From Nitrospinales bacterium (GTDB lineage Bacteria; Nitrospinota_A; UBA7883; JACRGQ01): a DNA stretch of 64,000 nucleotides. The notes beneath the pieces were generated by a model. That model saw only the letters and a list, made by a program, of their open reading frames with translations. It made no database searches and had not been told where the DNA came from. The translations under genes and the position numbers were made by a program. Location: contig JAHFEJ010000002.1 in assembly GCA_023248535.1 (NCBI GenBank), positions 2,714 through 66,713 on the forward strand, read 5' to 3'. Positions 31,790-59,321 of the stretch are shown here, piece after piece; the stretch's first letter is position 1, and each line of letters starts with the position of its first letter.

Positions 31790-33157
31790 ATGCGGATGAA
31801 TCTTGACGATACCATCGCCGCCATCGCCACCCCCGCGGGCGAAGGGGGGCTGGGGGTGATACGCGTTTCAGGCCCCAGCGCCCACCGCATCGCCGCCCCG
31901 CTTTTTTTCCGCAAAGGGGGAAAGCCGGGCGATCCGCTGGAATCGCACCGGCTTTACTTCGGCACGCTGCTCGGCGCGGCGGGGCCGGTGGACGAGGTCT
32001 GCGTGGTCTACATGCGATCGCCGCGCAGCTACACGCGGCAGGATATGGTGGAGATAAGCTGCCACGGCTCCCCCGCCGTGTTGCGCCGCGCCCTCAACAC
32101 GCTGCTGGAGGCCGGCGCGCGGATGGCCGAGCCGGGGGAATTCACCAAGCGGGCGTTTTTGAGCGGGCGCATCGACCTCAGCCAGGCCGAGGGGATCATC
32201 GATCTCATCAAGGCCCGCAGCGAGGGCGCGGCCCGCGCCGCGTTCGGGCTGATGCAGGGGGGGCTGTCGCAACGGATAGAGGCGGTGCGCCAAAAACTGG
32301 TATGGACCCTTTCGCACCTTGAAGCGTCCATCGATTTTCCCGACGAGGAGTTCATCACCGCCACCGATGACGAGCTGCGCAAAACGCTCACCGAGGCCGC
32401 GCGCCGACTGGACATCTTGATAAAAAGCTACGACGGCGGACGGTTTTTAAAGCACGGGCTTTCGCTTGCCATCATCGGCAAACCCAACGCGGGCAAATCA
32501 TCGCTGCTCAACGCGCTGCTGGAGGAAGAGCGGGCCATCGTGGCCGAAATCCCCGGTACTACGCGCGATCTCATCCGCGCCGAGGGGGAACTGGCCGGAC
32601 TGAAAGTGGAACTGATAGACACGGCGGGGCTGAACCCCGCGCCGGATGAGGTGGAAGCCGAGGGGATCCGCCGCGCATTGAAAGCCGCCGAGGGAGCCGA
32701 CGCGGTCATCGGCCTGTTCGACGGCGCGCGCGCATGGGAAGAAAGCGATACGAAAGTGTTGGAGGTGCTGAAAAAAGCGCGGCTCCATCTGGCGGTGATA
32801 AACAAGGCCGATATGCCGCAGCTTATCGCGTGGCCCGACGCCGCCCTGGCGCCGGTCAAAATATCGGTGAAAGAGATGCGCGGCCTCGACCAGCTTCTGA
32901 CAAAAATTGCGGCCTTCGCGCACGATGCTCAGGCGCTCAATCACGAAGAGCCGGTGGTGACGCGGGCGCGCCACCGCGAAATATTTTGCCGCATCGCCGG
33001 CGATTTGCGCCGCGCCGCCGATGAAATCGCGGCGGGGCGCGAACTGGCAGCCGCCAGCGTGTGGGACGCGCTGGAAGAGATAAAGCGGTTCACCGGTGAG
33101 TCGTACACCGAAGAGGTGCTTTCGGCCATCTTTGACGAATTCTGCGTGGGCAAGTGA
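31790..33157 (+). CDS. mnmE: tRNA modification GTPase MnmE
   Basis: 455 aa. G-domain GKPNAGKSSLLNAL. C-terminal C(V)GK motif. Confidence 0.9.
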   Translation: MRMNLDDTIAAIATPAGEGGLGVIRVSGPSAHRIAAPLFFRKGGKPGDPLESHRLYFGTLLGAAGPVDEVCVVYMRSPRSYTRQDMVEISCHGSPAVLRRALNTLLEAGARMAEPGEFTKRAFLSGRIDLSQAEGIIDLIKARSEGAARAAFGLMQGGLSQRIEAVRQKLVWTLSHLEASIDFPDEEFITATDDELRKTLTEAARRLDILIKSYDGGRFLKHGLSLAIIGKPNAGKSSLLNALLEEERAIVAEIPGTTRDLIRAEGELAGLKVELIDTAGLNPAPDEVEAEGIRRALKAAEGADAVIGLFDGARAWEESDTKVLEVLKKARLHLAVINKADMPQLIAWPDAALAPVKISVKEMRGLDQLLTKIAAFAHDAQALNHEEPVVTRARHREIFCRIAGDLRRAADEIAAGRELAAASVWDALEEIKRFTGESYTEEVLSAIFDEFCVGK

Positions 33158-33189
33158 AGCTATTGATCCCCGCATTTATAATGTCCCAT

Positions 33190-33240
33190 ACATGGGTGGC
33201 GCGGACACTCTTGTCCGCGTTGTGCCCGCAAGGGCACAAC
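33190..33240. other. Paired hairpins GGACACTCTTGTCC + GTGCCCGCAAGGGCAC (recurs at 48397-48430)
   Basis: The same two-hairpin arrangement with small substitutions occurs in a second intergenic region. Confidence 0.4.
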
Positions 33241-33347
33241 TGTTTAATTGCCGCGCGGGTATTGCGCGCCCTGCCGGACGCGCCACGGGCAAGAGTGCCC
33301 GTGCCACCAAATGCAACTTTCTTAAATAAAACATTATTTAACGCCCA

Positions 33348-35216
33348 ATGGCTATGAAGCGGTTTGACGTTATCGTGGCCGGGGGCGGCCACGCCGGATG
33401 CGAAGCGGCGCACGCCGCCGCGCGCCTCGGCTGCGCCACCGCGATGGTCGTCACCGACAGGCTCTCCATCGCCCGGATGAGCTGCAACCCCGCCATCGGC
33501 GGTCCCGGCAAAAGCCAGATCGTGCGCGAGATAGACGCGCTGGGCGGCCTGATGGCGCGCGTAACCGACCGCGCCGGGCTGCAATGGCGCACCCTCAACG
33601 GCGCCAAAGGGGCCGCCGTCCGCGCCTGCCGGGCGCAGGCCGACACCATCGAATACGAAACGGCGATGCGGGAAGAGCTGGCCGCCACGCCAAACCTTTC
33701 CATCATCGAAGGAACTGTAAAAGATATTCTGGCAAAGGACGGCGCGGTGCGCGGCGTTCTTTTGCTTTCTGGAGATGAGCTGGCGGCCAATGCGGTGATT
33801 CTATGCACCGGCACGTTCCTCAACGGCCTGTTGCACACCGGCCTTACGCAAACACCGGGGGGGCGCGTGGGCGAGGGGCCGTCGGCGCACCTTTCCGATT
33901 CGCTTAAAAAACTTGGCCTCACGCTTGGCCGCCTGAAAACCGGCACCCCCGCGCGGCTGCACAAGGATTCCATCAACTGGGATGCGGCCCAAGAACAGCC
34001 GGGCGACACGCCGCCGCCGCCGATGTCGTACTTCACCAAAAAGATCGGGCGCGAACAGTTGCCCTGCCACATCACCCACACCAACGCCCGCACGCACGAG
34101 ATCATCCGCACCGGGTTTGGCCGCTCGCCGCTGTTCACCGGCGTGATACAAGGGGTGGGGCCGCGCTACTGTCCCAGCATAGAGGACAAAGTGGTGCGCT
34201 TTCCCGAACGGCTTTCGCATCACATCTTCCTCGAGCCGGTCTCGCGCCACAACGATGAAATCTACCCCAATGGCATATCCACCTCTCTGCCGGAGGACAT
34301 TCAGGACGAATTCCTCCGCTCCATCCCCGGCCTCGAAGAGGTAAAGGTCATCCGCTACGGCTACGCGGTGGAATACGATTTTGTGCCGCCAACGCAAACC
34401 TACCCCACGCTGGAATCGAAGGCGGTGGGCGGCCTCTATCTGGCGGGACAGATCAACGGCACCAGCGGATACGAGGAGGCGGCGGGGCAAGGGCTGTTGG
34501 CCGGCATCAACGCCGCCCGCAAGGTGCGCGGCGAAGAGCCGGTCATTTTGTCACGCGCTGAAAGCTACATCGGCGTGATGGTGGACGACCTCACCACCCT
34601 CGGCACCGAAGAGCCGTACCGCATGTTCACCAGCCGCGCCGAACACCGCTTGGTGATGCGGCAGGATAACGCCGACCAGCGGCTGTGCGAACTGGGCCGC
34701 ATCATCGGCCTGTTGCGAGAAGAACAGTATCGGGAATATCGGGAAAGGCAGGGGCGGATTCAATCGCTGGTGAAGCGGTTGCGGGGGGAGTTTCTCAATC
34801 CCACGCCGGAAACAATGACTTTGCTGCGCAATAGCGGACTCCCGCCGGTGGAGATGTCCATCGGCATCGCTCAATACATGAAACGCCCTGATGTGGCGCT
34901 GAAACGCGACTCCGTCTTTGGCGATCTGGCGGCATTCGACGATGCCGACATCGAGCGGGCCGAAACGGAGATAAAATACGAAGGGTACATCGCCCGGCAA
35001 AACCGCTGGATAGAGCAGATGGGGAAGATTGAGAACATGCCGCTGGAAAAAGAAATGAATTACATCGGCATCTCCGGCCTCTCCGTCGAGCTGCAACAAA
35101 AGTTGGAAAAGGTGAAACCGCTCACCTTCGGTCGGGCGTCGCGCATCGCCGGCATGACCCCTGCCGCGCTCTCCATCTTGATGATCCATCTCAAAACACG
35201 GGGACGAAATGTTTAG
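33348..35216 (+). CDS. mnmG: tRNA uridine 5-carboxymethylaminomethyl modification enzyme MnmG (GidA)
   Basis: 622 aa. FAD-binding DVIVAGGGHAGCEAA. Conserved GidA C-terminal domain. Confidence 0.92.
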   Translation: MAMKRFDVIVAGGGHAGCEAAHAAARLGCATAMVVTDRLSIARMSCNPAIGGPGKSQIVREIDALGGLMARVTDRAGLQWRTLNGAKGAAVRACRAQADTIEYETAMREELAATPNLSIIEGTVKDILAKDGAVRGVLLLSGDELAANAVILCTGTFLNGLLHTGLTQTPGGRVGEGPSAHLSDSLKKLGLTLGRLKTGTPARLHKDSINWDAAQEQPGDTPPPPMSYFTKKIGREQLPCHITHTNARTHEIIRTGFGRSPLFTGVIQGVGPRYCPSIEDKVVRFPERLSHHIFLEPVSRHNDEIYPNGISTSLPEDIQDEFLRSIPGLEEVKVIRYGYAVEYDFVPPTQTYPTLESKAVGGLYLAGQINGTSGYEEAAGQGLLAGINAARKVRGEEPVILSRAESYIGVMVDDLTTLGTEEPYRMFTSRAEHRLVMRQDNADQRLCELGRIIGLLREEQYREYRERQGRIQSLVKRLRGEFLNPTPETMTLLRNSGLPPVEMSIGIAQYMKRPDVALKRDSVFGDLAAFDDADIERAETEIKYEGYIARQNRWIEQMGKIENMPLEKEMNYIGISGLSVELQQKLEKVKPLTFGRASRIAGMTPAALSILMIHLKTRGRNV

Positions 35217-35219
35217 AGT

Positions 35220-35558
35220 AACCACAGAGGCACAGAGACACAGACGGGAAAGGTGCGGCATAACCCGAAAGGTTGTCATACTGAGGGAGCGCTGGCGACC
35301 GAAGTATCTCTTTCCGGCAAGAGCGCTGAAGGTTTTCTCTGTGTCTCCGTGCCTCAGTGGTGATTTCTCATTTTCATATCGGCACCATAATGTTTGGAAT
35401 AACCACCGAGACACAGAGCCACAGACGGGAAAGGGGCGGCATAACTTGGAAGGTTGTCATACTGAGGGAGCACTGGCGACCGAAGTATCTCTTTCCGGCA
35501 AGAGCGCTGAAGGTTTTCTCCGTGCCTCCGTGCCTCTGTGTCTCCGTGCCTCTGTGTT
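35220..35558. repeat. Tandem pair of palindromic elements (E1 35220-35362, E2 35401-35558) sharing an ~95-bp conserved core
   Basis: Both copies carry GACGGGAAAGG(T/G)GCGGCATAAC...GGTTGTCATACTGAGGGAGC(G/A)CTGGCGACCGAAGTATCTCTTTCCGGCAAGAGCGCTGAAGGTTTTCTC between the family TIRs. About 90% identity. Lies between mnmG and rsmG. Confidence 0.8.
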
Positions 35559-35590
35559 TATTTTTTCCCTACGCATGATGCAAGGTTGCC

Positions 35591-36139
35591 ATGACAGATA
35601 AACTCATCACGCGCTATCTGGACGAGCTTTACCGCTGGAATGAAAAGGTGAACCTCACCTCTGTCGCGCGGGAAAAGGCCCACGCGGTGCTCATCGAGCC
35701 GTCGTTCGCGATGGCGGAGTTCTTTCCGCCGGGGGATACGCTGGAGATTTTCGACATCGGCAGCGGCGGCGGACTTCCCGCCATCCCGCTCGCCGTGCGC
35801 CATCCGCGGCACCGTTTCACTCTGGTGGAATCGGACCGGAAGAAGGCGGTTTTTTTACAGCACGCCGCCGGTCTGCTGGGATTGAAAAACGTGCGGGTGC
35901 TGAACGAGCGGAGCGAAAAGGTTTCGCAAGACCCCGCTTGCCGCGGAACCGCCGATGTTGTAACCTCGCGCGCCGTGAAGAGGGAAGATGTTTTTGCCGC
36001 CGCCGACGGCCTGTTGAAACCATCGGGCCGCGTCATCATCCACCACACCCCCGACGCCCCGGAAGTGGCCTCCGGTTACCACCTTTACGGCAAAATCCCC
36101 TCCGCCGACTGCTTCACCCGCCATCTCACCGCCCCATAA
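35591..36139 (+). CDS. rsmG: 16S rRNA (guanine527-N7)-methyltransferase RsmG (GidB)
   Basis: 182 aa. SAM-binding DIGSGGGLP motif. Conserved mnmG-rsmG synteny. Confidence 0.88.
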   Translation: MTDKLITRYLDELYRWNEKVNLTSVAREKAHAVLIEPSFAMAEFFPPGDTLEIFDIGSGGGLPAIPLAVRHPRHRFTLVESDRKKAVFLQHAAGLLGLKNVRVLNERSEKVSQDPACRGTADVVTSRAVKREDVFAAADGLLKPSGRVIIHHTPDAPEVASGYHLYGKIPSADCFTRHLTAP

Positions 36140-36539
36140 ATGCCACTATCCGCTTTACCAATAACGGCGTTTTTTTAATCTGGCATTCCCAAATCACAAG
36201 CGTTTTCCAACCCTGTTTTTTCAGCGCTAGAAGGTTTTTTTGGTCACGTTCTTTGTTTCTTGATAACTTTGCCTTCCAATACTTGATATTCGATTTTGGC
36301 ATGTGTGCGATGCCACATTGATTACTTTCATGTGTGTGCCAAAAGCATCCATGGACGAAAATGGCTTTTTTTCCGCTTCTAAACACCAAGTCCGGCTTGC
36401 CGGGCAAATCGGAAGCATGAAGGCGGTAACGGTAACCAAGTTGATAAACGGTTTTTCTTACGGCGATTTCAGGCTTCATCCCCTTGCCCCGGATGCGCCG
36501 CATGTTCTCGCTTCGCGCGTCGGGGGTGAGCTTATCCAT
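36126..36539 (-). CDS. vsr: Very-short-patch repair endonuclease
   Basis: 137 aa. Vsr motifs (PDLVF, FVHGCFWH). 8-nt overlap with the HNH gene. Confidence 0.88.
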   Translation of the reverse strand: MDKLTPDARSENMRRIRGKGMKPEIAVRKTVYQLGYRYRLHASDLPGKPDLVFRSGKKAIFVHGCFWHTHESNQCGIAHMPKSNIKYWKAKLSRNKERDQKNLLALKKQGWKTLVIWECQIKKTPLLVKRIVAFMGR

Positions 36540-37125
36540 CCTTCAGTTGTTTTTTGGCATCCTTGGGAAACTTGCCGATAAGCCAATTCAATACTGAAAT
36601 CTGATCAGTGGCCGGTGCTCTGCGGATTTGCGCCAACAATTTGCTGGCCGAAGGACGCTCAAGCGTAATATTGGCCGCCCCTTCATTGCAGACGGAACAA
36701 ATGGCGCGCAGGTTGGATGGATCGTCATCGCCACCTAATGATTTATCTTTAACGTGGCCTATGTGCAACCGGGTCTTGCGGGTGGGGTCATAAGGATGGG
36801 GTTCTCCGGCTGCCGCCCCGCACATCTGGCAGGTATACCCGTTTCGATCCAGAACAAGGGCGCGGGTTTCTTTTGATATTTCGCGGGCAAAGGCGGGCAC
36901 CGGCTTGGGGTTCTCAAGCAGATAGTCCCCCGGTTTCAAATTGCTCCGGTCATTGTGGGTCAGTATTTGGTATCCCTCTTCCGTGCGCAGTTCCCGGACT
37001 CTCCTTGCCCACTCGCTGGTGTTGCCCGCGATTTTTCTTAATTCATCCGAAGACATGACTTTGCCTATATTTTTCAGAAAATGTGCCCGGAGTTTCGCCC
37101 TCGCGCCATTTGATTTCTTTTTCAT
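36532..37125 (-). CDS. HNH nuclease, putative restriction endonuclease of a Type II R-M system
   Basis: 197 aa. CxxC...HIGH...N...CxxC HNH core (CQMCG, HIGHVKDKS, CSVCN). Sandwiched between the m5C MTase and vsr. Confidence 0.65.
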   Translation of the reverse strand: MKKKSNGARAKLRAHFLKNIGKVMSSDELRKIAGNTSEWARRVRELRTEEGYQILTHNDRSNLKPGDYLLENPKPVPAFAREISKETRALVLDRNGYTCQMCGAAAGEPHPYDPTRKTRLHIGHVKDKSLGGDDDPSNLRAICSVCNEGAANITLERPSASKLLAQIRRAPATDQISVLNWLIGKFPKDAKKQLKDG

Positions 37126-37129
37126 AATC

Positions 37130-38083
37130 TTAGCTTGCCACCTGAACCAATTGCCGCCTGGTCAGGCACTTTACCAACTGTTGTGCAACTGCGTGAGCCA
37201 CCGGAGAGGGAAAAGCGTTTCCCACTTGACGGTAGGCGGGGGTTTTTTTTCCATGAAATTGCCAGTCATCCGGGAAACCTTGTATGCGTGCCACCATTCG
37301 CACCGTCAGCCGGGGCATGCCGATAAAATCCTTGGCCGGGGCTTCATCCACAATGCCCCGGCCATCGACCCCCAATGCGGCCCACGCTTTTCTTGCCCTT
37401 GTCGGCCCCAAATCCGGCCCGCCATGCTTAAGGGAACCGCCAACTATCGTTGGCGCGATCTCATTGGCTTGTTTGGCCCAGTTTTTTGCGCCCTTCCATC
37501 CATTGAAGGCCATAAGGTCATATAGCGTTTCGCCAACAGTGGGGGGATGGGCCGATAATCTGAAAGGCCACGAAAAATTTTCCCATAAGTCAGATTTAAG
37601 GGCCACAAAGATAACGCGGGGCCGCAACTGCGGCACCCCGAAATCACTGGCATTGAGCAAAGCCCAATCGGTTTTATAACCAAGTTTTTTTAGTTCTTTG
37701 GCGACGTACAGGCGGTAATCCTGAAAGACGGCGTCCAGTATTCCCCGGACATTTTCAATCATTACCGCGCGAGGCCTGATTTCATCAACCAGCCTGATGG
37801 CGGCTGGAAAAAGATTGCGTTCATCATCTTCGCCCAATTGCTTTCCCGCCTTTGAAAACGGAGGACAGGGCAACCCCCCGGCGAACAGATCAACCCCTTT
37901 GTACGGCTTGCCGTTAAACTCCTTGATATTTTCCTGCAAGACGTTCCACTGAGGGCGGTTAAGCGTTAGGGTGTTGCAAGCGTTTTTATCAAGTTCGACA
38001 AGAGCCTGATGATCGAAGCCGGCTTTTTCAAGCCCAATAGCTTGTCCCCCCGCCCCGGCGCATACCTCAACTGAAGTCAGCAT
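37130..38083 (-). CDS. DNA (cytosine-5)-methyltransferase
   Basis: 317 aa. Motif I (EVCAGAGG), motif IV (GLPCPPFS), motif VI (ENV) and motif X. Confidence 0.9.
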   Translation of the reverse strand: MLTSVEVCAGAGGQAIGLEKAGFDHQALVELDKNACNTLTLNRPQWNVLQENIKEFNGKPYKGVDLFAGGLPCPPFSKAGKQLGEDDERNLFPAAIRLVDEIRPRAVMIENVRGILDAVFQDYRLYVAKELKKLGYKTDWALLNASDFGVPQLRPRVIFVALKSDLWENFSWPFRLSAHPPTVGETLYDLMAFNGWKGAKNWAKQANEIAPTIVGGSLKHGGPDLGPTRARKAWAALGVDGRGIVDEAPAKDFIGMPRLTVRMVARIQGFPDDWQFHGKKTPAYRQVGNAFPSPVAHAVAQQLVKCLTRRQLVQVAS

Positions 38084-38357: not shown

Positions 38358-38675
38358 TCTCCTTGCCCGGCGTAAATTTATCTGTCCAACTATAGACCGT
38401 CCCCCCATGCGAAACAAAGATGGATAGTCAACACCGCTTGGCGGTTTTGGCGGAATTGGGAGAATTGGCGCTTCGGCAACCGGGCTGACGGGCAGTCTCA
38501 CCCGGCGAGCGAGGCGTTTTTCACCAGGCCGCGATGCGGTGGATTTGGCGCGCTTGGCGTTTTTGCACGAAAAGCATGAAGAATCCGCCCCGAAAAAAGC
38601 GGTAGAAATCCCCCTCCTCCCAAAATCCCAAAAATAATGTTCCCCCCTCCGCTCCGCGCGCGGTAAAATCGACCC

Positions 38676-39257
38676 ATGTTGCTAATGATCGATAACTACG
38701 ATTCTTTCACCTACAACCTCGTTCAGTATTTCCTGGAACTGGGGCAGACGGTGGAGACCTTCCGTAACGATGCCATCTCCATCGCCGATATAGAGGCGCT
38801 GAAACCCGAATACATCGTCATCTCCCCCGGTCCCTGCACCCCAAACGAGGCCGGCATATCGCTTGCCGTGGTGGAAAAGCTGCAGGGAAAGTACCCGATA
38901 CTGGGGGTCTGCCTTGGTCATCAGTCGATTTGCCAGGCCTTTGGCGGAAAGATCGTAAAAGCCAAAAAACTGATGCACGGAAAAACATCGAACATCATTC
39001 ACGACCGAAGAACCATTTTTTCAAACATTCCCAGCCCCTTTACTGCCACCCGATATCACTCGCTGGTGGCCGAAAGGGAGGGCCTGCCTGAAGACCTTGA
39101 GATATCGGCCTACGATGACGAACTCCATGAAATCATGGCCGTCCGGCACAAGACACTCCCCATAGAGGGGGTGCAGTTCCACCCGGAATCTATACTTACT
39201 GATCACGGAAAAAGTATTATAAGTAACTTTTTGACTATATATGGGTCAAAAGCATGA
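38676..39257 (+). CDS. trpG: Anthranilate/aminodeoxychorismate synthase glutamine amidotransferase component
   Basis: 193 aa class I GATase. Catalytic GVCLGHQ Cys and HPES His/Glu. Confidence 0.88.
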
Positions 39258-40267
39258 TAAAAGAAGCAATTTCAAAGATTATTGCCAGCCAAGACCTGCC
39301 AGAGGCGGAGATGGTTCAGGTCATGGAAGAGATCATGACCGGGGCAGCCACCCCCGCCCAGATCGGCGCTTTTCTCATCGCTCTTCGGATAAAAGGGGAG
39401 ACGGTGGACGAGATAACCGGTGCTGCGTGGGTGATGCGGGAGAAAGCGGTGAAGATCGACACGCCCGCTGGCAAAACGGTCGTTGATACCTGCGGCACCG
39501 GCGGAGATTCATCCGGGACGTTCAACATCTCCACCACAGCCGCTTTCATCACCGCTGGCGCGGGATTGGTCGTGGCGAAACATGGGAACAAATCGGTCTC
39601 CAGTAAATCGGGCAGCGCCGATCTTTTGCAAGCCCTCGGCATTAACATCGAAGCCGAGCAGAGCCGCGTGGAAGAGTGCCTGCGGCAGTGCGGAATAGGC
39701 TTTCTTTTTGCCCCGATGATGCATGGAGCGATGAAATACGCCATCGGCCCTCGCAGAGAGATAGGGGTGAGAACAATATTCAATCTGCTGGGTCCGCTCA
39801 CCAATCCGGCCGGTGCCGAAAACCAGGTGATCGGGGTTTATTCCGATACCCTTACCGAGCCATTGGCCAACGTGTTGAAAAGGTTGGGATCAAAGCATGT
39901 TTTTGTGGTACACGGACACGATGGTTTGGATGAATTGACCCTCACGGCCAAAAGCCGGGTGAGCGAGCTGAAAGATGGAAAAGTAACGACTTATGATTTC
40001 GATCCGCGGGAATACGGCTTTTCTTATTGCAGTCCGGCGGATTTAAAAGGGGAAGACCCGCAAGCCAACGCCAAAATCACCCTTGGAATCCTGAAAGGGG
40101 AAGAAAAGGGGCCAAAAAGGGACATTTCGGTTTTGAATGCGGCTTTTTCAATTGTGGCCGGGGGCAAGGCGAATAGTATTAAAGATGGGGTGGAACTTGC
40201 AAAAACATCCATCGCATCTGGTGCAGCACTGTCGAAACTGGAAGAGATGAGACGCCTTACGAATTAG
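39254..40267 (+). CDS. trpD: Anthranilate phosphoribosyltransferase
   Basis: 337 aa. GTGGD and KHGN motifs. ATGA overlap with trpG. Confidence 0.9.
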
Positions 40268-40269
40268 CG

Positions 40270-41225
40270 CACTCCGTCTGGCATGCTTGCAATATATAAT
40301 AGCCCCACGTTAGATATATGGCCTTTACGACTTATTTATACAACGCAATTTTCTATAAACCCTTACAGTTAGATCACTGTATCCTGTGTTGGCCATACAT
40401 GCCCGTACACTATAAGGCGCAATACTAAATTATTCATGGTCATTTGTATATTTCAATACACATGGCATTTTTAGAAGTTTTTGATACTTAGGCACATTTC
40501 TTTGCCCACCGTAATTGCAATGTAAGTCTTATATCATACATTAATACCATTTATATAACATTTCATGCGACTGACCAAAGAGACAGTATATACGGTGACA
40601 ACTTTTATATATAAAACTCCAGAATTGGCACTCCGATGTCGAGTGAAGACCAATATTCATTGCCGATAGGATAGCCGAACTCATGCATATGCTAGCTGAA
40701 ATATATTTTTTCAATGTTGAGGTCACTTTTCAGCACTTGGGTGCACTTATTAGCCCATAGCAGCGTGGCTCCAGATGCAGATCGCTACGTCTGGATTTTT
40801 GGCAATGGGCCGATCTGAAACCAGCTTAGCCGTCATGGAAAACTGAAATATGTCAACATATTCCATTAATGTCTTCGCGTGATCTTCGACCTTCCTCTTT
40901 GTTAGTTTGAGCCAAACTTCCTCGGTTATTGCCATAATTTTTATTAGAAAACCGAGCCTTCATCGCCCAAGATGCCTTGAGAGCGGTGTGGATTTATTGA
41001 AAGATCAGAATTGCTGACCAATCGGTATGTAACATTCACGTATTGATACACGTAATGTCGCAACGCCCATAATAATAACATATAGCCTGTAAATATGCCT
41101 GAAAAATTGATTTAGGCTCTTGCCATTCAACTGTTTTCCCAATGAAAAATTAAATTTCAGCCCATTATTCCAATATTTATACCAGCAAAATATTGATTAC
41201 AGGGTATCACCGTCTTATATCTTCC
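40270..41225. other. ~950-bp AT-rich (about 40% GC) non-coding island
   Basis: Sharp compositional drop against ~65% flanks. Only short, poorly supported ORFs. Confidence 0.7.
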
Positions 41226-41227
41226 TC

Positions 41228-43789
41228 ATGATGGATTTTAACAGGTTTACGATCAAGGCCTCGGAAGCGATACAAGGAGCGATGCAGCTTGCAGGGAGCC
41301 TATCCCACCAGGCGGTCACCCCCCTACACCTCCTCCTTAGCCTCATAAAGCAGGACGGGGGACTGGTGCCGAACATCCTTACCCGGCTTGAGGTTTCCCC
41401 CGAAAAGCTTGCCGGGGAGATAAAAAGTGCACTGGAGTCCCTGCCGCGCGTCACCGGTGTTGAGGGCGCCTACCTTTCCCCCGAAGCCAAGAAGGCGCTT
41501 GAGGCGGCGGAATCGGAGGCGGCCCAGCTTCACGACGAATACCTGAGCACCGAGCACTTGCTCTTGGGGGTTCTTGATCAGCCCTCGGTGAAAAAGCTGC
41601 TCAAGATCACGCGTGACGAGGTTTTGAAAGCACTGGCCTCTATCAGGGGAAGCCAGCGTGTGACCGACGCCGACCCGGAAGGAAAATACCAGGCCCTTGA
41701 AAAATACACCGCCGATCTCACCCGGCAGGCGGCCCAAAACAAAATAGACCCTGTGGTTGGCCGCGAAGACGAGATCCGCCGGATGATGCAGATTCTCAGC
41801 CGCCGCACCAAGAACAACCCCTGCCTGGTTGGGGAACCGGGAACCGGCAAAACCGCCATCGTGGAGGGTTTGGCCCGAAAAATAATCGAAGGGGACGTTC
41901 CCAACACAATTAAAAACAAACGGTTACTCTCGCTTGATATGGGGGCGCTCATCGCCGGCACCAAATACCGGGGCGAGTTTGAAGACCGTCTGAAAGCGGT
42001 CATAAAGGAGATTGAGTCGGCCGAGGGGGAGGTGATCCTCTTCATCGACGAATTGCACACCATCGTGGGGGCTGGCGCGGCGGAAGGCTCGATGGACGCG
42101 GGCAACCTGCTGAAACCGGCCCTTGCGCGGGGCAAGCTCCACACCATCGGCGCCACCACGTTGAAAGAGTACCGCAAACATATCGAAAAAGATGCCGCCC
42201 TGGAGCGCCGCTTCCAGCCCGTGATGGTGGAAGAGCCATCCGTAAAAGACGCCATCTCGATTCTGCGCGGCATCAAGGAGAAATATGAACTGCATCATGG
42301 CGTGCGCATCCGTGATAACGCCATCGTGGCGGCGGCAACCCTTTCCGCCCGCTATATCACCGACCGCTTTCTGCCTGATAAGGCCATTGACCTGATGGAC
42401 GAGGCGGCCAGCGGCCTCAAAATGGACCTTGAAAGCCGTCCCGCCGAGCTGGATCGGCTCGACCGGAAAATACGCCAGATGGAGATCGAGCGCGCCGCCC
42501 TGAAAAAAGAATCCGACGAGGCGAGCAAAAAGAGGCTGCAAGAGCTGGAAAAGGAGCTTTCGCTATCCGCCGAGGAATTGAAGACGGTCGAGCTGCAATG
42601 GCAAAACGAAAAAGGGGTTATCGACGCCATCAAGGGGGCGAAAGAGGAGATCGGCCGCCTGAAAGACGGGGCGGAAAAGGCCGAGCGGACGGGCGAACTG
42701 CAAAAGGTCGCCGAGATCCGCTACGCCAAAATCCCCGAACAGGAAAAACTGATGCGCGAGACGCAGGCAAAGCTGGCCGCGCTGCATACAAACCGCTCCA
42801 TCCTCCGCGAAGAGGTGACGGAAGAGGATATCGCCGCGGTGGTTTCCCGATGGACGGGCATCCCCGTCACCCGGATGTTGACGGAAGAGAGCCAAAAACT
42901 CGCGCACCTTGAAGAATCCCTTGCCCGGCGGGTGGTCGGCCAAAAACCGGCTATTAAGGCAGTGAGCAACGCGGTGCGCCGCAGCCGCGCCGGGTTGCAG
43001 GAAGAGGGGCGGCCGATGGGGAGCTTCATCTTCCTGGGGCCAACCGGCGTGGGAAAGACCGAGCTGGCCAAGGCGCTGGCGGAGTTTTTATTCAACGACG
43101 AGCGGAACATTATCCGCGTCGATATGAGCGAATATATGGAAAAACACGCCGTGGCGCGGCTGATCGGCTCGCCCCCCGGCTATGTGGGATACGAGGAGGG
43201 GGGGCAGCTCACCGAAGCGGTGCGCCGCCATCCCTACAGCATTATGCTGTTCGACGAAATTGAAAAAGCCCACTCCGATGTTTTCAACCTGCTGCTGCAG
43301 GTGCTGGACGAAGGGCGGCTCACCGATGGCAAGGGGCGGACGGTCGATTTCCGCAACACGGTGTTGATAATGACCTCGAACATCGCGGCGGAGCAGATAG
43401 CCGAGTTTAGGGACGACCCCGGGCGGCAGCGCGAAGAGGTCTTCGCGGCGCTGCGGCGGCTCTTCCGGCCCGAGTTCCTCAACCGCATCGACGACACCAT
43501 CATCTTCCAGCACCTCGGGCGCGAAGAGCTGGCCGAGATCGTCCGGATACAGGTGGAGAGGGTGGCGAAACGGCTGGAGCAAAAGAAGATCGCCCTGCGC
43601 CTCACCAAGCGCGCCACCGGCCAGCTTGCCGTAGCGGGTTACGATCCTGCATTTGGCGCGCGCCCCCTCAAGCGGGTCATCCAGAACGAGATACTGGACG
43701 AGTTGGCGTTGCGTATTGTGGAAGGAAAAATTGCTGAAGGGAATGACGTGACCATAGACTACAAAGACGGATGGGTGATAACCGTTTAG
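41228..43789 (+). CDS. clpB: Chaperone ClpB (AAA+ disaggregase)
   Basis: Two AAA+ modules ([16 protein letters not shown]), the middle coiled-coil domain and a Clp N domain. Confidence 0.93.
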
Positions 43790-57883: not shown

Positions 57884-58221
57884 GCGAACCGCTTACGCTC
57901 CCCAAATCGCTTGCCGCTTACGGCAGCGAAGCATTCGCCGAAACACTGGCACATGAACTGCTGGATAACCTCTGGAAACTGCCGCTGGAAAAGCTCTGCA
58001 AAAAAGGGGGCTGGCCTTACAAGGACGGCCCGTTCTCGCTGTATGAAATCGACGTGAAAGATGAAGGCGGTGCGCTGCATATTGCCTGCGGCGTCAGCTT
58101 CGAAGAGGCCGTCCCTTCCTGCTGCGCGGGCGGCGGCATCACCGACACCCACATGGGCAACCTCTCGCTCACCATCAACAAATCCACCGCCCTCGCCGAA
58201 GCCAAAGTTGCCGAACTTTAG
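57880..58221 (+). CDS. Hypothetical 113-aa protein translationally coupled to the Sel1 protein
   Basis: ATGA overlap. CCAGGG Cys pair. No recognised domain. Confidence 0.45.
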   Translation: MSEPLTLPKSLAAYGSEAFAETLAHELLDNLWKLPLEKLCKKGGWPYKDGPFSLYEIDVKDEGGALHIACGVSFEEAVPSCCAGGGITDTHMGNLSLTINKSTALAEAKVAEL

Positions 58222-58249
58222 ATTATTTGTGAATTAGTGCGAAGGCCTT

Positions 58250-59059
58250 TTAAAGCCCTACACTAAATAAGTGAGCCATTCTTTTCCCTTTTGCAGAGAA
58301 TACATAGCCGTTCCCATTATCATAAATAATGTTGGCAAGTTGATATTTTTGGATTTCGTCTGCGCTTAAATTCCTACCTCCGTCCTGCAAGACATCATCG
58401 ATTACCTTATTAAACCCATTGAAGAAGTCTACCGTTTTTAACCGGTGGTATTCGGAATCGTTAGCATCAGTCCGACCGGAATCAGGCACCTTGTCTACCT
58501 TCTCCTCATTCCTTTTTTTGCTCTGCTGGCCTACTTCATCTGCCTTTAGCGCCAAGTCGGAAGTGGCCTGAGGATTGGCGGCCATCTCTAAGCTTTTTAT
58601 TTTGTTATTAAGCACTTCAATTGTGGCGTCTTTTTCTTTGATCATGCTTGCCACTTCATGTTTTACCCGTTCCATTTGGACGCGAATTTCATCAGCAGCT
58701 TCTTCTGTTAATAGCTGCTTTTTCTCCTTCTCCTGCTTTATTTTCAACAGTTCTTCCGCTCTATCTTTTGCAAAGGAATATGCCCATTTGGACGGAAAGG
58801 GATATACGAAAATAAAAAACATTGCGGAAATTAAGGGCCCAAAGAACAAATGGATAAACCCTTCCCATGATAATGTCATATAAGAAAATGATTCTATGTT
58901 GGTTATTCGGGCCGAAGCAGTTTCATCACCAATGAACAAAAGCGCGAGAACCTTCCAGTTAATAACTCCCCACGAAAGGATAAAGGCCCCCGACAAAGGG
59001 CTTACAACCCTATCGTAAAGAATAGCCTTGAACGACTTGCTTAATTCTTCAAGCATGGC
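58250..59059 (-). CDS. Membrane-anchored coiled-coil protein of unknown function (low-GC island)
   Basis: Two N-terminal TM helices, a ~100-aa K/E-rich coiled coil and a ~70-aa C-terminal domain. GC about 45%. Confidence 0.5.
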   Translation of the reverse strand, partial: AMLEELSKSFKAILYDRVVSPLSGAFILSWGVINWKVLALLFIGDETASARITNIESFSYMTLSWEGFIHLFFGPLISAMFFIFVYPFPSKWAYSFAKDRAEELLKIKQEKEKKQLLTEEAADEIRVQMERVKHEVASMIKEKDATIEVLNNKIKSLEMAANPQATSDLALKADEVGQQSKKRNEEKVDKVPDSGRTDANDSEYHRLKTVDFFNGFNKVIDDVLQDGGRNLSADEIQKYQLANIIYDNGNGYVFSAKGKRMAHLFSVGL

Positions 59060-59072
59060 TTGACCGAGATGT

Positions 59073-59321
59073 TCATATATCGGCGAATTCTTCGACGGGG
59101 ACGTTAATCTCCTTTGACGCCTTTTTTTTGGAATGGCTGATCTCCTCGAAGGCATGTTCGATTTTTTTCAGGGTTGCGGCTTCATAGTACCGCTCGCCGC
59201 AGAAATCGCATTCTTCGCACGGCACCTCGTTGACGACGAAAAAGCGGCTGCCGCTTTTATAGATGTACTGCGCCTTTTTTGCCGTGAAATTTTTGTTTCC
59301 GCAAAAATTACATGTTTTCAT
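59073..59321 (-). CDS. YgiT-type zinc-finger protein (MqsA-like antitoxin zinc ribbon, no HTH)
   Basis: CxxCG...(28 aa)...CxxCDFCGE pattern (CNFCGN ... CEECDFCGERYY). Confidence 0.6.
   Translation of the reverse strand: MKTCNFCGNKNFTAKKAQYIYKSGSRFFVVNEVPCEECDFCGERYYEAATLKKIEHAFEEISHSKKKASKEINVPVEEFADI

Follow-up and report, generated by a model that had tools for sequence, protein, structure and literature searches.

What is the AT-rich, apparently gene-free DNA between trpD and clpB in a Nitrospinales genome? The locus lies in a 64-kb stretch of DNA (64,000 nt, referred to below as the window), and we define the spacer as positions 40268–41227, the 960 nt that run from the trpD stop codon (TAG, 40265–40267) to the clpB ATG at 41228. 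Our answer, to which we give a probability of about 70%, is that this island is a long non-coding control region upstream of clpB, vertically inherited within an uncultivated clade of Nitrospinota. Three features define the locus:

40268–41227, no strand: the non-coding AT-rich spacer (960 nt, 38% GC), with homologous spacers at the same junction in lineages L002, L003, L004, L147, L150 and L152.
39254–40267, + strand: trpD, the upstream neighbor, functionally not tied to the spacer.
41228–43789, + strand: clpB, 853 aa, the most probable target gene; its product aligns from residue 1 with ClpB of relatives, for whose products Pfam domains are reported.

The spacer has a GC content of 38.2%, compared to 58.1% for the window, 53% for trpD, 59% for clpB and ~56% for the flanks, and it is the lowest-GC 960-nt interval in the 64 kb (z = −4.0). 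The longest run without a stop-to-stop open reading frame (ORF) of at least 100 aa in any frame, 846 nt, also lies within it; the runner-up is 482 nt. An earlier note on this DNA had described a GC content of ~40% in a ~65% GC genome, with abrupt boundaries at the trpD stop and about 100 bp before clpB. The low GC content is borne out (38.1% for 40270–41225), but the background is about 58% and not 65%, and only the left boundary is where the note placed it: on the right, AT-rich DNA reaches the ATG at 41228, with 50-nt windows containing 24% GC at 41150, 38% at 41200 and 60% at 41250. The note was correct that only weak, short ORFs occur here, the longest of them having 61 aa when measured from a start codon. 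Ten short spacer ORFs had no match in Pfam, a tRNA scan found none near the spacer, and no tandem repeats were detected.

By its TrpD sequence, the window belongs among the uncultivated Nitrospinota/Nitrospinales. The same arrangement of trpG-trpD, AT-rich spacer and clpB is present in six other lineages (L002, L003, L004, L147, which is the same as L148 and L149, L150, and L152). We refer to these six and the window as the clade, and to the clade plus L236 as the eight lineages. TrpD identity to the window is 80–91% in the six other clade members, and ClpB identity is 91–93% for the five full-length genes and 83% for the partial gene of L152. The six spacers are 726–1050 nt long with a GC content of 32–38%, between flanks of 54–60% GC, and a seventh contig (L151) ends within its own AT-rich trpD–clpB spacer. 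Between genomes, coding DNA is 73–87% identical and the spacers are ~63–69% identical in gapped alignment, which is essentially saturated. Despite this saturation the spacers retain their length, their composition and a colinear series of short conserved islands. At these syntenic junctions, a comparison that the earlier note had suggested, the relatives share the AT-rich spacer, but no recognizable conserved gene is present in it.

An AT-rich region accompanies clpB even where trpD is not its neighbor. In L236/L237 (ClpB identity 76%), the gene that precedes clpB is rpe and not trpD, with 1092 nt of non-coding DNA (35% GC) between them, and this upstream region contains P-like sites (3 mismatches to the P palindrome described below), a unit resembling block F (also described below) and the sequence TTGACT-N14-GTCTTAT-N9-ATG. 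Because the AT-rich region stays with clpB when its upstream neighbor changes, we assign the island to clpB and not to trpD. Three more distant Nitrospinota (L009, L066 and L011) have the usual gene order trpD-trpC-trpF-trpB-trpA, without a spacer. In L153/L154 (TrpD identity 76%), trpD is followed by an unrelated 678-nt region upstream of the gene for a 1242-aa protein, and this region has none of the motifs described below. A metagenome scan with TrpD found no relative closer than 71%.

Two side observations concern the trpD neighborhood. In the clade, trpG-trpD (38676–40267 in the window) is split from the rest of the trp operon, with no trpE upstream. In L005 (7532–11149), L153 (6699–9695) and L154 (2940–6668), with TrpD identities of 74–76%, the order is trpD, a region of 500–680 nt, and a gene for a protein of ~1200–1240 aa, which has no Pfam domain apart from a sub-threshold match to the phage tail-sheath protein Gp18.

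The right-hand end of the spacer is set by the clpB gene model, on which public annotations disagree: 889 aa from a TTG at 41120 in the window, and 835, 853 or 873 aa in relatives (for example L147 12011, and L004). The N-terminus MMDFNRF aligns with ClpB of relatives from residue 1, and this conservation supports the 853-aa model that starts at 41228. Judged by this alignment, the ORF that begins at TTG 41120 wrongly extends the 5′ end of clpB into the spacer.

The DNA immediately before this ATG contains the elements of a promoter:

41193–41198, + strand: putative −35 hexamer TTGATT, located by alignment and promoter scan; ATTGA (41192–41196) is invariant in the eight lineages.
41212–41221, + strand: the invariant GTCTTAT (41212–41218), overlapping a putative −10 hexamer TATATC (41216–41221) that lies 17 nt after the −35 hexamer and 6 nt before the ATG.

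All eight lineages have the pattern TTGAYn-N17-TATnnn, and ATTGA and GTCTTAT are invariant among them. The distance from GTCTTAT to the start codon is 16 nt in seven of the eight (17 nt in L004), and six of the eight have 6 nt between the end of the −10 hexamer and the ATG, the gap being 3–4 nt larger in L002 and L004. In none of the eight is clpB preceded by a Shine-Dalgarno sequence or a purine-rich tract. The absence of a Shine-Dalgarno sequence, together with the geometry of the promoter, indicates that the clpB mRNA is probably leaderless or near-leaderless. As a separate observation, most of 14 gene starts that we inspected in the genome have no obvious Shine-Dalgarno sequence, and trpG has a −10-like TAAAAT exactly 6 nt before its ATG (TAAAAT-N6-ATG, window 38640–38678) and no Shine-Dalgarno sequence; in this lineage, translation may often start on leaderless mRNAs or independently of a Shine-Dalgarno sequence.

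Upstream of the promoter, the spacer contains two copies of a palindrome that we call P:

40570–40587, no strand: P1, ACTGACCAAAGAGACAGT, with the family consensus ACTGACC-N4-GGTCAGT, identified by word and site statistics.
41013–41030, no strand: P2, GCTGACCAATCGGTATGT, 199 nt before GTCTTAT and 215 nt before the ATG.

A P site is 18 bp long, and 17 sites give the consensus A-C-T-G/A-A-C-C-N4-G-G-T-C/A-A-G-T. Its heptamer ACTGACC/GGTCAGT is the most over-represented word in the spacers, with 9 occurrences observed and 0.5 expected. If up to 2 mismatches are allowed, 0.0025 P sites would be expected by chance in each spacer, and at that threshold there are no further sites elsewhere in the 64-kb window and none in ~1.4 Mb of other loci, except for one isolated 2-mismatch match in L027. 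Mismatches fall independently in the two halves of the palindrome, as expected of protein half-sites on DNA and not of RNA stems. Exact matches to P are also present in viral contigs (at least 80), a number that we estimate to be within chance for 14 specified bases and therefore uninformative, and a full-text literature search for the half-sites returned only primers.

The spacing between P2 and the promoter also falls within narrow ranges. From the start of P2 to GTCTTAT the distance is 187 nt in one lineage, 188 nt in four and 191 nt in another, and it is 199 nt in the window and 198 nt in L236. These two longer distances arose from independent indels of ~10 nt at different positions, a pattern that would be expected from selection for helical phase and that we regard as suggestive, with n = 8 and one lineage 3 nt off. 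P1 lies 422–486 bp upstream of P2 in six lineages, in which both sites are clear; in L236 the distal site has 3 mismatches and is 617 bp upstream of P2.

Between and around the P sites, the alignment contains further conserved elements:

40309–40321, + strand: motif GTTAA-N3-TATGG, here GTTAGATATATGG, at alignment columns ~98–112 and with copies in L067; a weakly supported recurrent motif.
40540–40591, + strand: block B, the reverse of GTTAA-N3-TATGG (CCATTTATATAAC) followed by the distal site P1; its profile is found in all clade members (E = 5e-6 to 1e-2) and is inverted in L067/L155.
40680–40711, + strand: block C, family consensus ACATATGTTAAnTGAAATATAT, from alignment and profile.
40844–40863, no strand: the D palindrome, TGAAATATGTCAACATATTC, with its core ATATGT-NN-ACATAT at 40848–40861; the exact match is unique in the 64-kb window.
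41009–41086, + strand: block F/G, the proximal site P2 plus GCCCAT..TAACA, the best-conserved part of the spacer; the block-F profile scores 43–56 bits in all seven clade members.

The D palindrome sits between P1 and P2 at a conserved position, in one to three copies per relative, and L002 carries a 20-mer identical to it. Blocks B and F/G are inverted copies of one unit of ~50–80 nt, each with a P site; the block-F profile also picks out block B, read in reverse, in L004 and in L150, as well as each of the two P units in L067 and a sequence in L236. We considered whether inverted repeats B and F flanking a promoter could form an invertible switch, and rejected this idea: in all genomes the segment in the middle points the same way, and there is no linked recombinase gene. 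When nine spacers are combined, AA/TT dinucleotides show a periodicity of 10–11.25 bp (z ~3.4, a value reached by 0 of 500 simulations), and nothing comparable is seen in control bands or in the rest of the window.

We propose the following mechanism from these elements. Transcription of clpB would be driven by a sigma-70-type promoter that occupies the 3′ edge of the island and consists of TTGATT, a 17-nt spacer, and TATATC within or overlapping GTCTTAT, and we infer that the transcript starts at the ATG or within a few bases of it. A dimeric DNA-binding protein would recognize the 18-bp P palindromes, with P2 ~200 bp upstream and locked ~19–20 helical turns from the promoter, and P1 ~40–46 turns further away, and a second factor probably binds the central ATATGT-NN-ACATAT palindrome. 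Looping or wrapping of the AT-rich DNA, with its weakly phased A/T tracts, would join the sites and tune expression of clpB, presumably under stress. In its fullest form the proposal is that the P and D palindromes are the operators of an undescribed system, which in Nitrospinota would control the stress chaperone gene clpB from 200–650 bp upstream by means of a phase-locked looped or wrapped AT-rich nucleoprotein complex on a leaderless promoter, replacing the HrcA, HspR, CtsR and sigma-32 schemes of other phyla. We put forward this full form only tentatively, as possible but doubtful.

Several points weigh against the control-region reading or parts of it. The promoter and the operators are predictions from conservation alone. 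The −10 hexamer is a poor one (TATCAA, TATCCA, TATATC), in which only TAT is conserved, and GTCTTAT could instead be an operator or a translation element. Since many genes of this genome have no obvious Shine-Dalgarno sequence, its absence at clpB is not specific. The P2-promoter distance in L002, 191 nt, is ~0.3 turn off phase, and eight lineages are few. The distal site P1 has only 3–4 mismatch matches in L152 and L236, and the one in L152 is no better than chance, so the two-operator architecture is firm in six lineages only. The A/T phasing of the window's own spacer is weak when taken alone (z 1.3–1.9). No candidate regulator gene is conserved beside the locus in the window or in the neighborhoods of its relatives.

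A further difficulty comes from L067/L155 (TrpD identity 71%), which have a 636-nt AT-rich spacer with two near-perfect P units but no adjacent clpB. This spacer sits between convergent genes, trpD and a response-regulator-HD gene. Its P units form a 60-nt direct repeat (L067 6108–6167 and 6449–6535, equivalent to L155 11108–11535), and it also holds a pair of GGGTTATC blocks similar to the promoter block of clpB. P units are thus not confined to the vicinity of clpB; those of L067/L155 may be a relic of rearrangement, or the P unit may have a role independent of clpB. L238 (ClpB identity 70%) was considered as a part of the L155 genome and rejected, because its GC content is 57.5% vs 48.8% and the region upstream of its clpB measures 100 nt and includes an ordinary Shine-Dalgarno sequence; L238 probably belongs to another organism and is uninformative here.

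Among well-studied control regions, the closest likeness to the clpB region that we found is the promoter carP1 of the E. coli carAB operon. The TetR-family regulator RutR binds there to a 16-bp palindromic RUT box, printed as TTGACCANNTGGTGAA, at −171 to −200 from the transcription start, and this box has very A+T-rich flanks in DNA that is wrapped by PepA and bent by IHF (PMC2952853). The clpB region resembles carP1 in the placement of P2 (aCTGACC-N4-GGTCAGt), which precedes the −10 region by ~187–199 nt and is surrounded by AT-rich DNA whose A/T tracts are weakly phased. Compared with the printed RUT box, P matches in the left half-site (CTGACC and TTGACC) and in the four-base gap, and differs in the outer bases. 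Against a symmetric form of the RUT box, TTGACCANNTGGTCAA, P matches at 10 of 12 half-site positions. Unlike carAB, the gene concerned is for a chaperone and is not part of pyrimidine or arginine metabolism, the phylum is different, the region is approximately three times longer, and it has a second P site 420–490 bp further upstream as well as a central palindrome. We found no TetR-family gene among 20 ORFs of the window searched against Pfam, or among called genes within 10 kb in L147, L150 and L155. We treat the resemblance to the RUT box as a possible lead to a TetR-type regulator, and not as demonstrated homology.

Other parallels are more general. In common with looping systems such as lac, gal, ara and deo, the clpB region has two copies of one palindromic operator, ~420–490 bp apart, and a distance from the proximal copy to the promoter that may be helically constrained; in lac, O1 and O2 are about 400 bp apart. 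Unlike lac, where the main operator overlaps the promoter, the only sequence that overlaps the clpB promoter is a possible half-site, the GGTC of GGTCTTATC, and looping here is a prediction. The known bacterial systems for clpB and other heat-shock chaperone genes (HrcA-CIRCE, HspR-HAIR, CtsR box and sigma-32) resemble our proposal in acting through inverted-repeat operators, but those operators are promoter-proximal whereas the P and D sites lie 200–650 bp upstream. Searches of the spacers found no match to CIRCE with up to 5 mismatches allowed, or to HAIR with up to 3. Matches to the CtsR box were few and scattered, each with 4 mismatches and at positions that are not conserved, and there was no positionally conserved match to sigma-32 or sigma-54 promoters. 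The long AT-rich upstream DNA in a GC-richer genome, with helically phased A/T tracts (a modest signal), also resembles the curved regions silenced by H-NS-type proteins, such as those of Shigella virF and E. coli proU. Regions of that type usually belong to horizontally acquired or virulence genes, whereas this island precedes a core housekeeping chaperone gene and is vertically inherited.

The alternative to a control region that survives best, although we think it unlikely, is that the spacer encodes small RNAs with little or no structure, or else a long transcript (antisense or leader), and that the conserved islands are the promoters, terminators or interaction sites of these RNAs. Promoter-like −35/−10 pairs are frequent on both strands of the spacer and some recur at similar alignment columns, but such matches are not more numerous than in shuffled sequences (1 found vs 3.2 expected). 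L147, L150 and L004 have TTGACA within the D palindrome and a −10-like hexamer 18–19 nt downstream, but the orientation of the TTGACA differs between genomes. The P units that have no adjacent clpB in L067/L155 are in its favor, as is the fact that a gene caller placed a gene in the spacer in one assembly. For a structured form of the long non-coding RNA suggested earlier, the evidence is all negative. Rfam searches of 39500–42000 gave no match in the spacer at E values up to 5, and one chance-level match outside it (E = 2.2). The folding energy is like that of dinucleotide shuffles (z = −0.95 on the + strand and −1.67 on the − strand), and the best-conserved part, the 3′ 240 nt, has an RNAalifold consensus of only −0.78 kcal/mol with 0 compensatory pairs, so no covariation is seen.

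Could the island instead be foreign DNA, either a domesticated or decaying remnant of an ancient mobile element (similar to a MITE, with inverted repeats) or a horizontally acquired segment? Its AT-richness in a GC-richer genome would fit such an origin, blocks B and F are inverted copies of ~50–80 nt that flank ~430 nt, and a Dcm-Vsr-HNH cassette of a typically mobile kind lies 2–4 kb upstream in this genome only. We consider this origin improbable. Every related lineage examined has a spacer at this junction (six other full lineages and the truncated contig), and a related region precedes clpB in a lineage with a different upstream gene. A mobile remnant would therefore have had to be retained over a divergence at which neutral sites are saturated. 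A blastn comparison (~65–70% sensitivity) with 72,556 plasmids and 50,697 phage records gave no match. Transposase or integrase remnants, an adjacent tRNA and a target-site duplication were all absent, and neither the window nor the loci contained another copy.

The cassette itself (window 36126–38083) is a separate matter. It lies between rsmG (gidB, 35591–36139) and trpG, and consists of a Dcm-type DNA methyltransferase gene (37130–38083, − strand) and genes for a Vsr very-short-patch repair endonuclease and an HNH endonuclease (36532–37125, − strand). None of the relatives examined has the cassette at this position, which makes a recent insertion of a mobile restriction-modification type probable.

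A small, fast-evolving protein gene is very unlikely. The best candidate is one of the ORFs of 45–61 aa that do exist in the spacer:

40750–40935, − strand: a 61-aa ORF, mentioned in the earlier note and annotated as a gene in one assembly; we judge it to be non-coding, and it has neither conservation in relatives nor a Pfam match.

Gene callers annotated 61-aa and 84-aa genes in two assemblies, but the position, strand and frame of these calls vary from genome to genome, and we found no conserved ORF. By tblastx and short-peptide clustering, peptide similarity across genomes is confined to segments of 6–18 aa, in several frames and on both strands, that coincide with DNA palindromes; for the 61-aa ORF, the sole similarity to relatives is EYVDIF, which is the translated D palindrome.

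The least probable explanation is a chromosome-maintenance site (a replication origin, terminus/dif or partition site), suggested by the length, AT-richness, non-coding nature and several repeated motifs and palindromes of the island and by the presence 5–9 kb upstream of mnmE-mnmG-rsmG (31790–36139), a cluster that is often near replication origins, but spoken against by the lack of mnmEG-rsmG linkage in relatives, by DnaA boxes (TTATCCACA-like, at most 2 mismatches) that number 2–8 per spacer where ~4 are expected, lie at positions that are not conserved, and do not exceed shuffle expectation in three of the four spacers that were scanned (the other being L004, with 8 vs 4.1 expected), by the absence of any parS or dif match or GC-skew switch, and by genes that are mostly co-directional across the locus in L155, as trpG-trpD are in L147.

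Of the four readings that the earlier note had offered (a horizontally acquired remnant, a degraded mobile element, a long non-coding RNA and a regulatory region for clpB silenced by a nucleoid protein), the regulatory region, whether silenced in this way or not, alone survives, and it is backed by the comparative data.

One other part of the window has an unusual composition. Besides the spacer, the only other large low-GC stretch is at 58161–59080, part of a coding stretch, 58161–59321, with 42% GC. It contains a 301-aa ORF without a Pfam match (58250–59155, − strand), followed by an 82-aa ORF rich in CxxC pairs (59073–59321, − strand), and this pair was possibly acquired.

Returning to the reading of the island as a clpB control region, it is of an ordinary kind, a long and complex promoter-upstream region, although this example is uncharacterized. 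Remote operators in bendable AT-rich DNA are already well known, and the wider significance of the locus is therefore modest. Its interpretation removes a false lead, because the unusual composition is attributed to a vertically inherited control region instead of to a pseudogene, a concealed RNA gene or foreign DNA. For annotators, the lesson is that short ORFs called in the spacer, and clpB models that are extended at the 5′ end or truncated, are artefacts. Nitrospinota are important nitrite oxidizers that are mostly known from metagenomes, and those who study them gain from this locus a set of testable cis-elements that belong to a core stress gene, namely a promoter that is probably leaderless, two 18-bp palindromes and a central palindrome.

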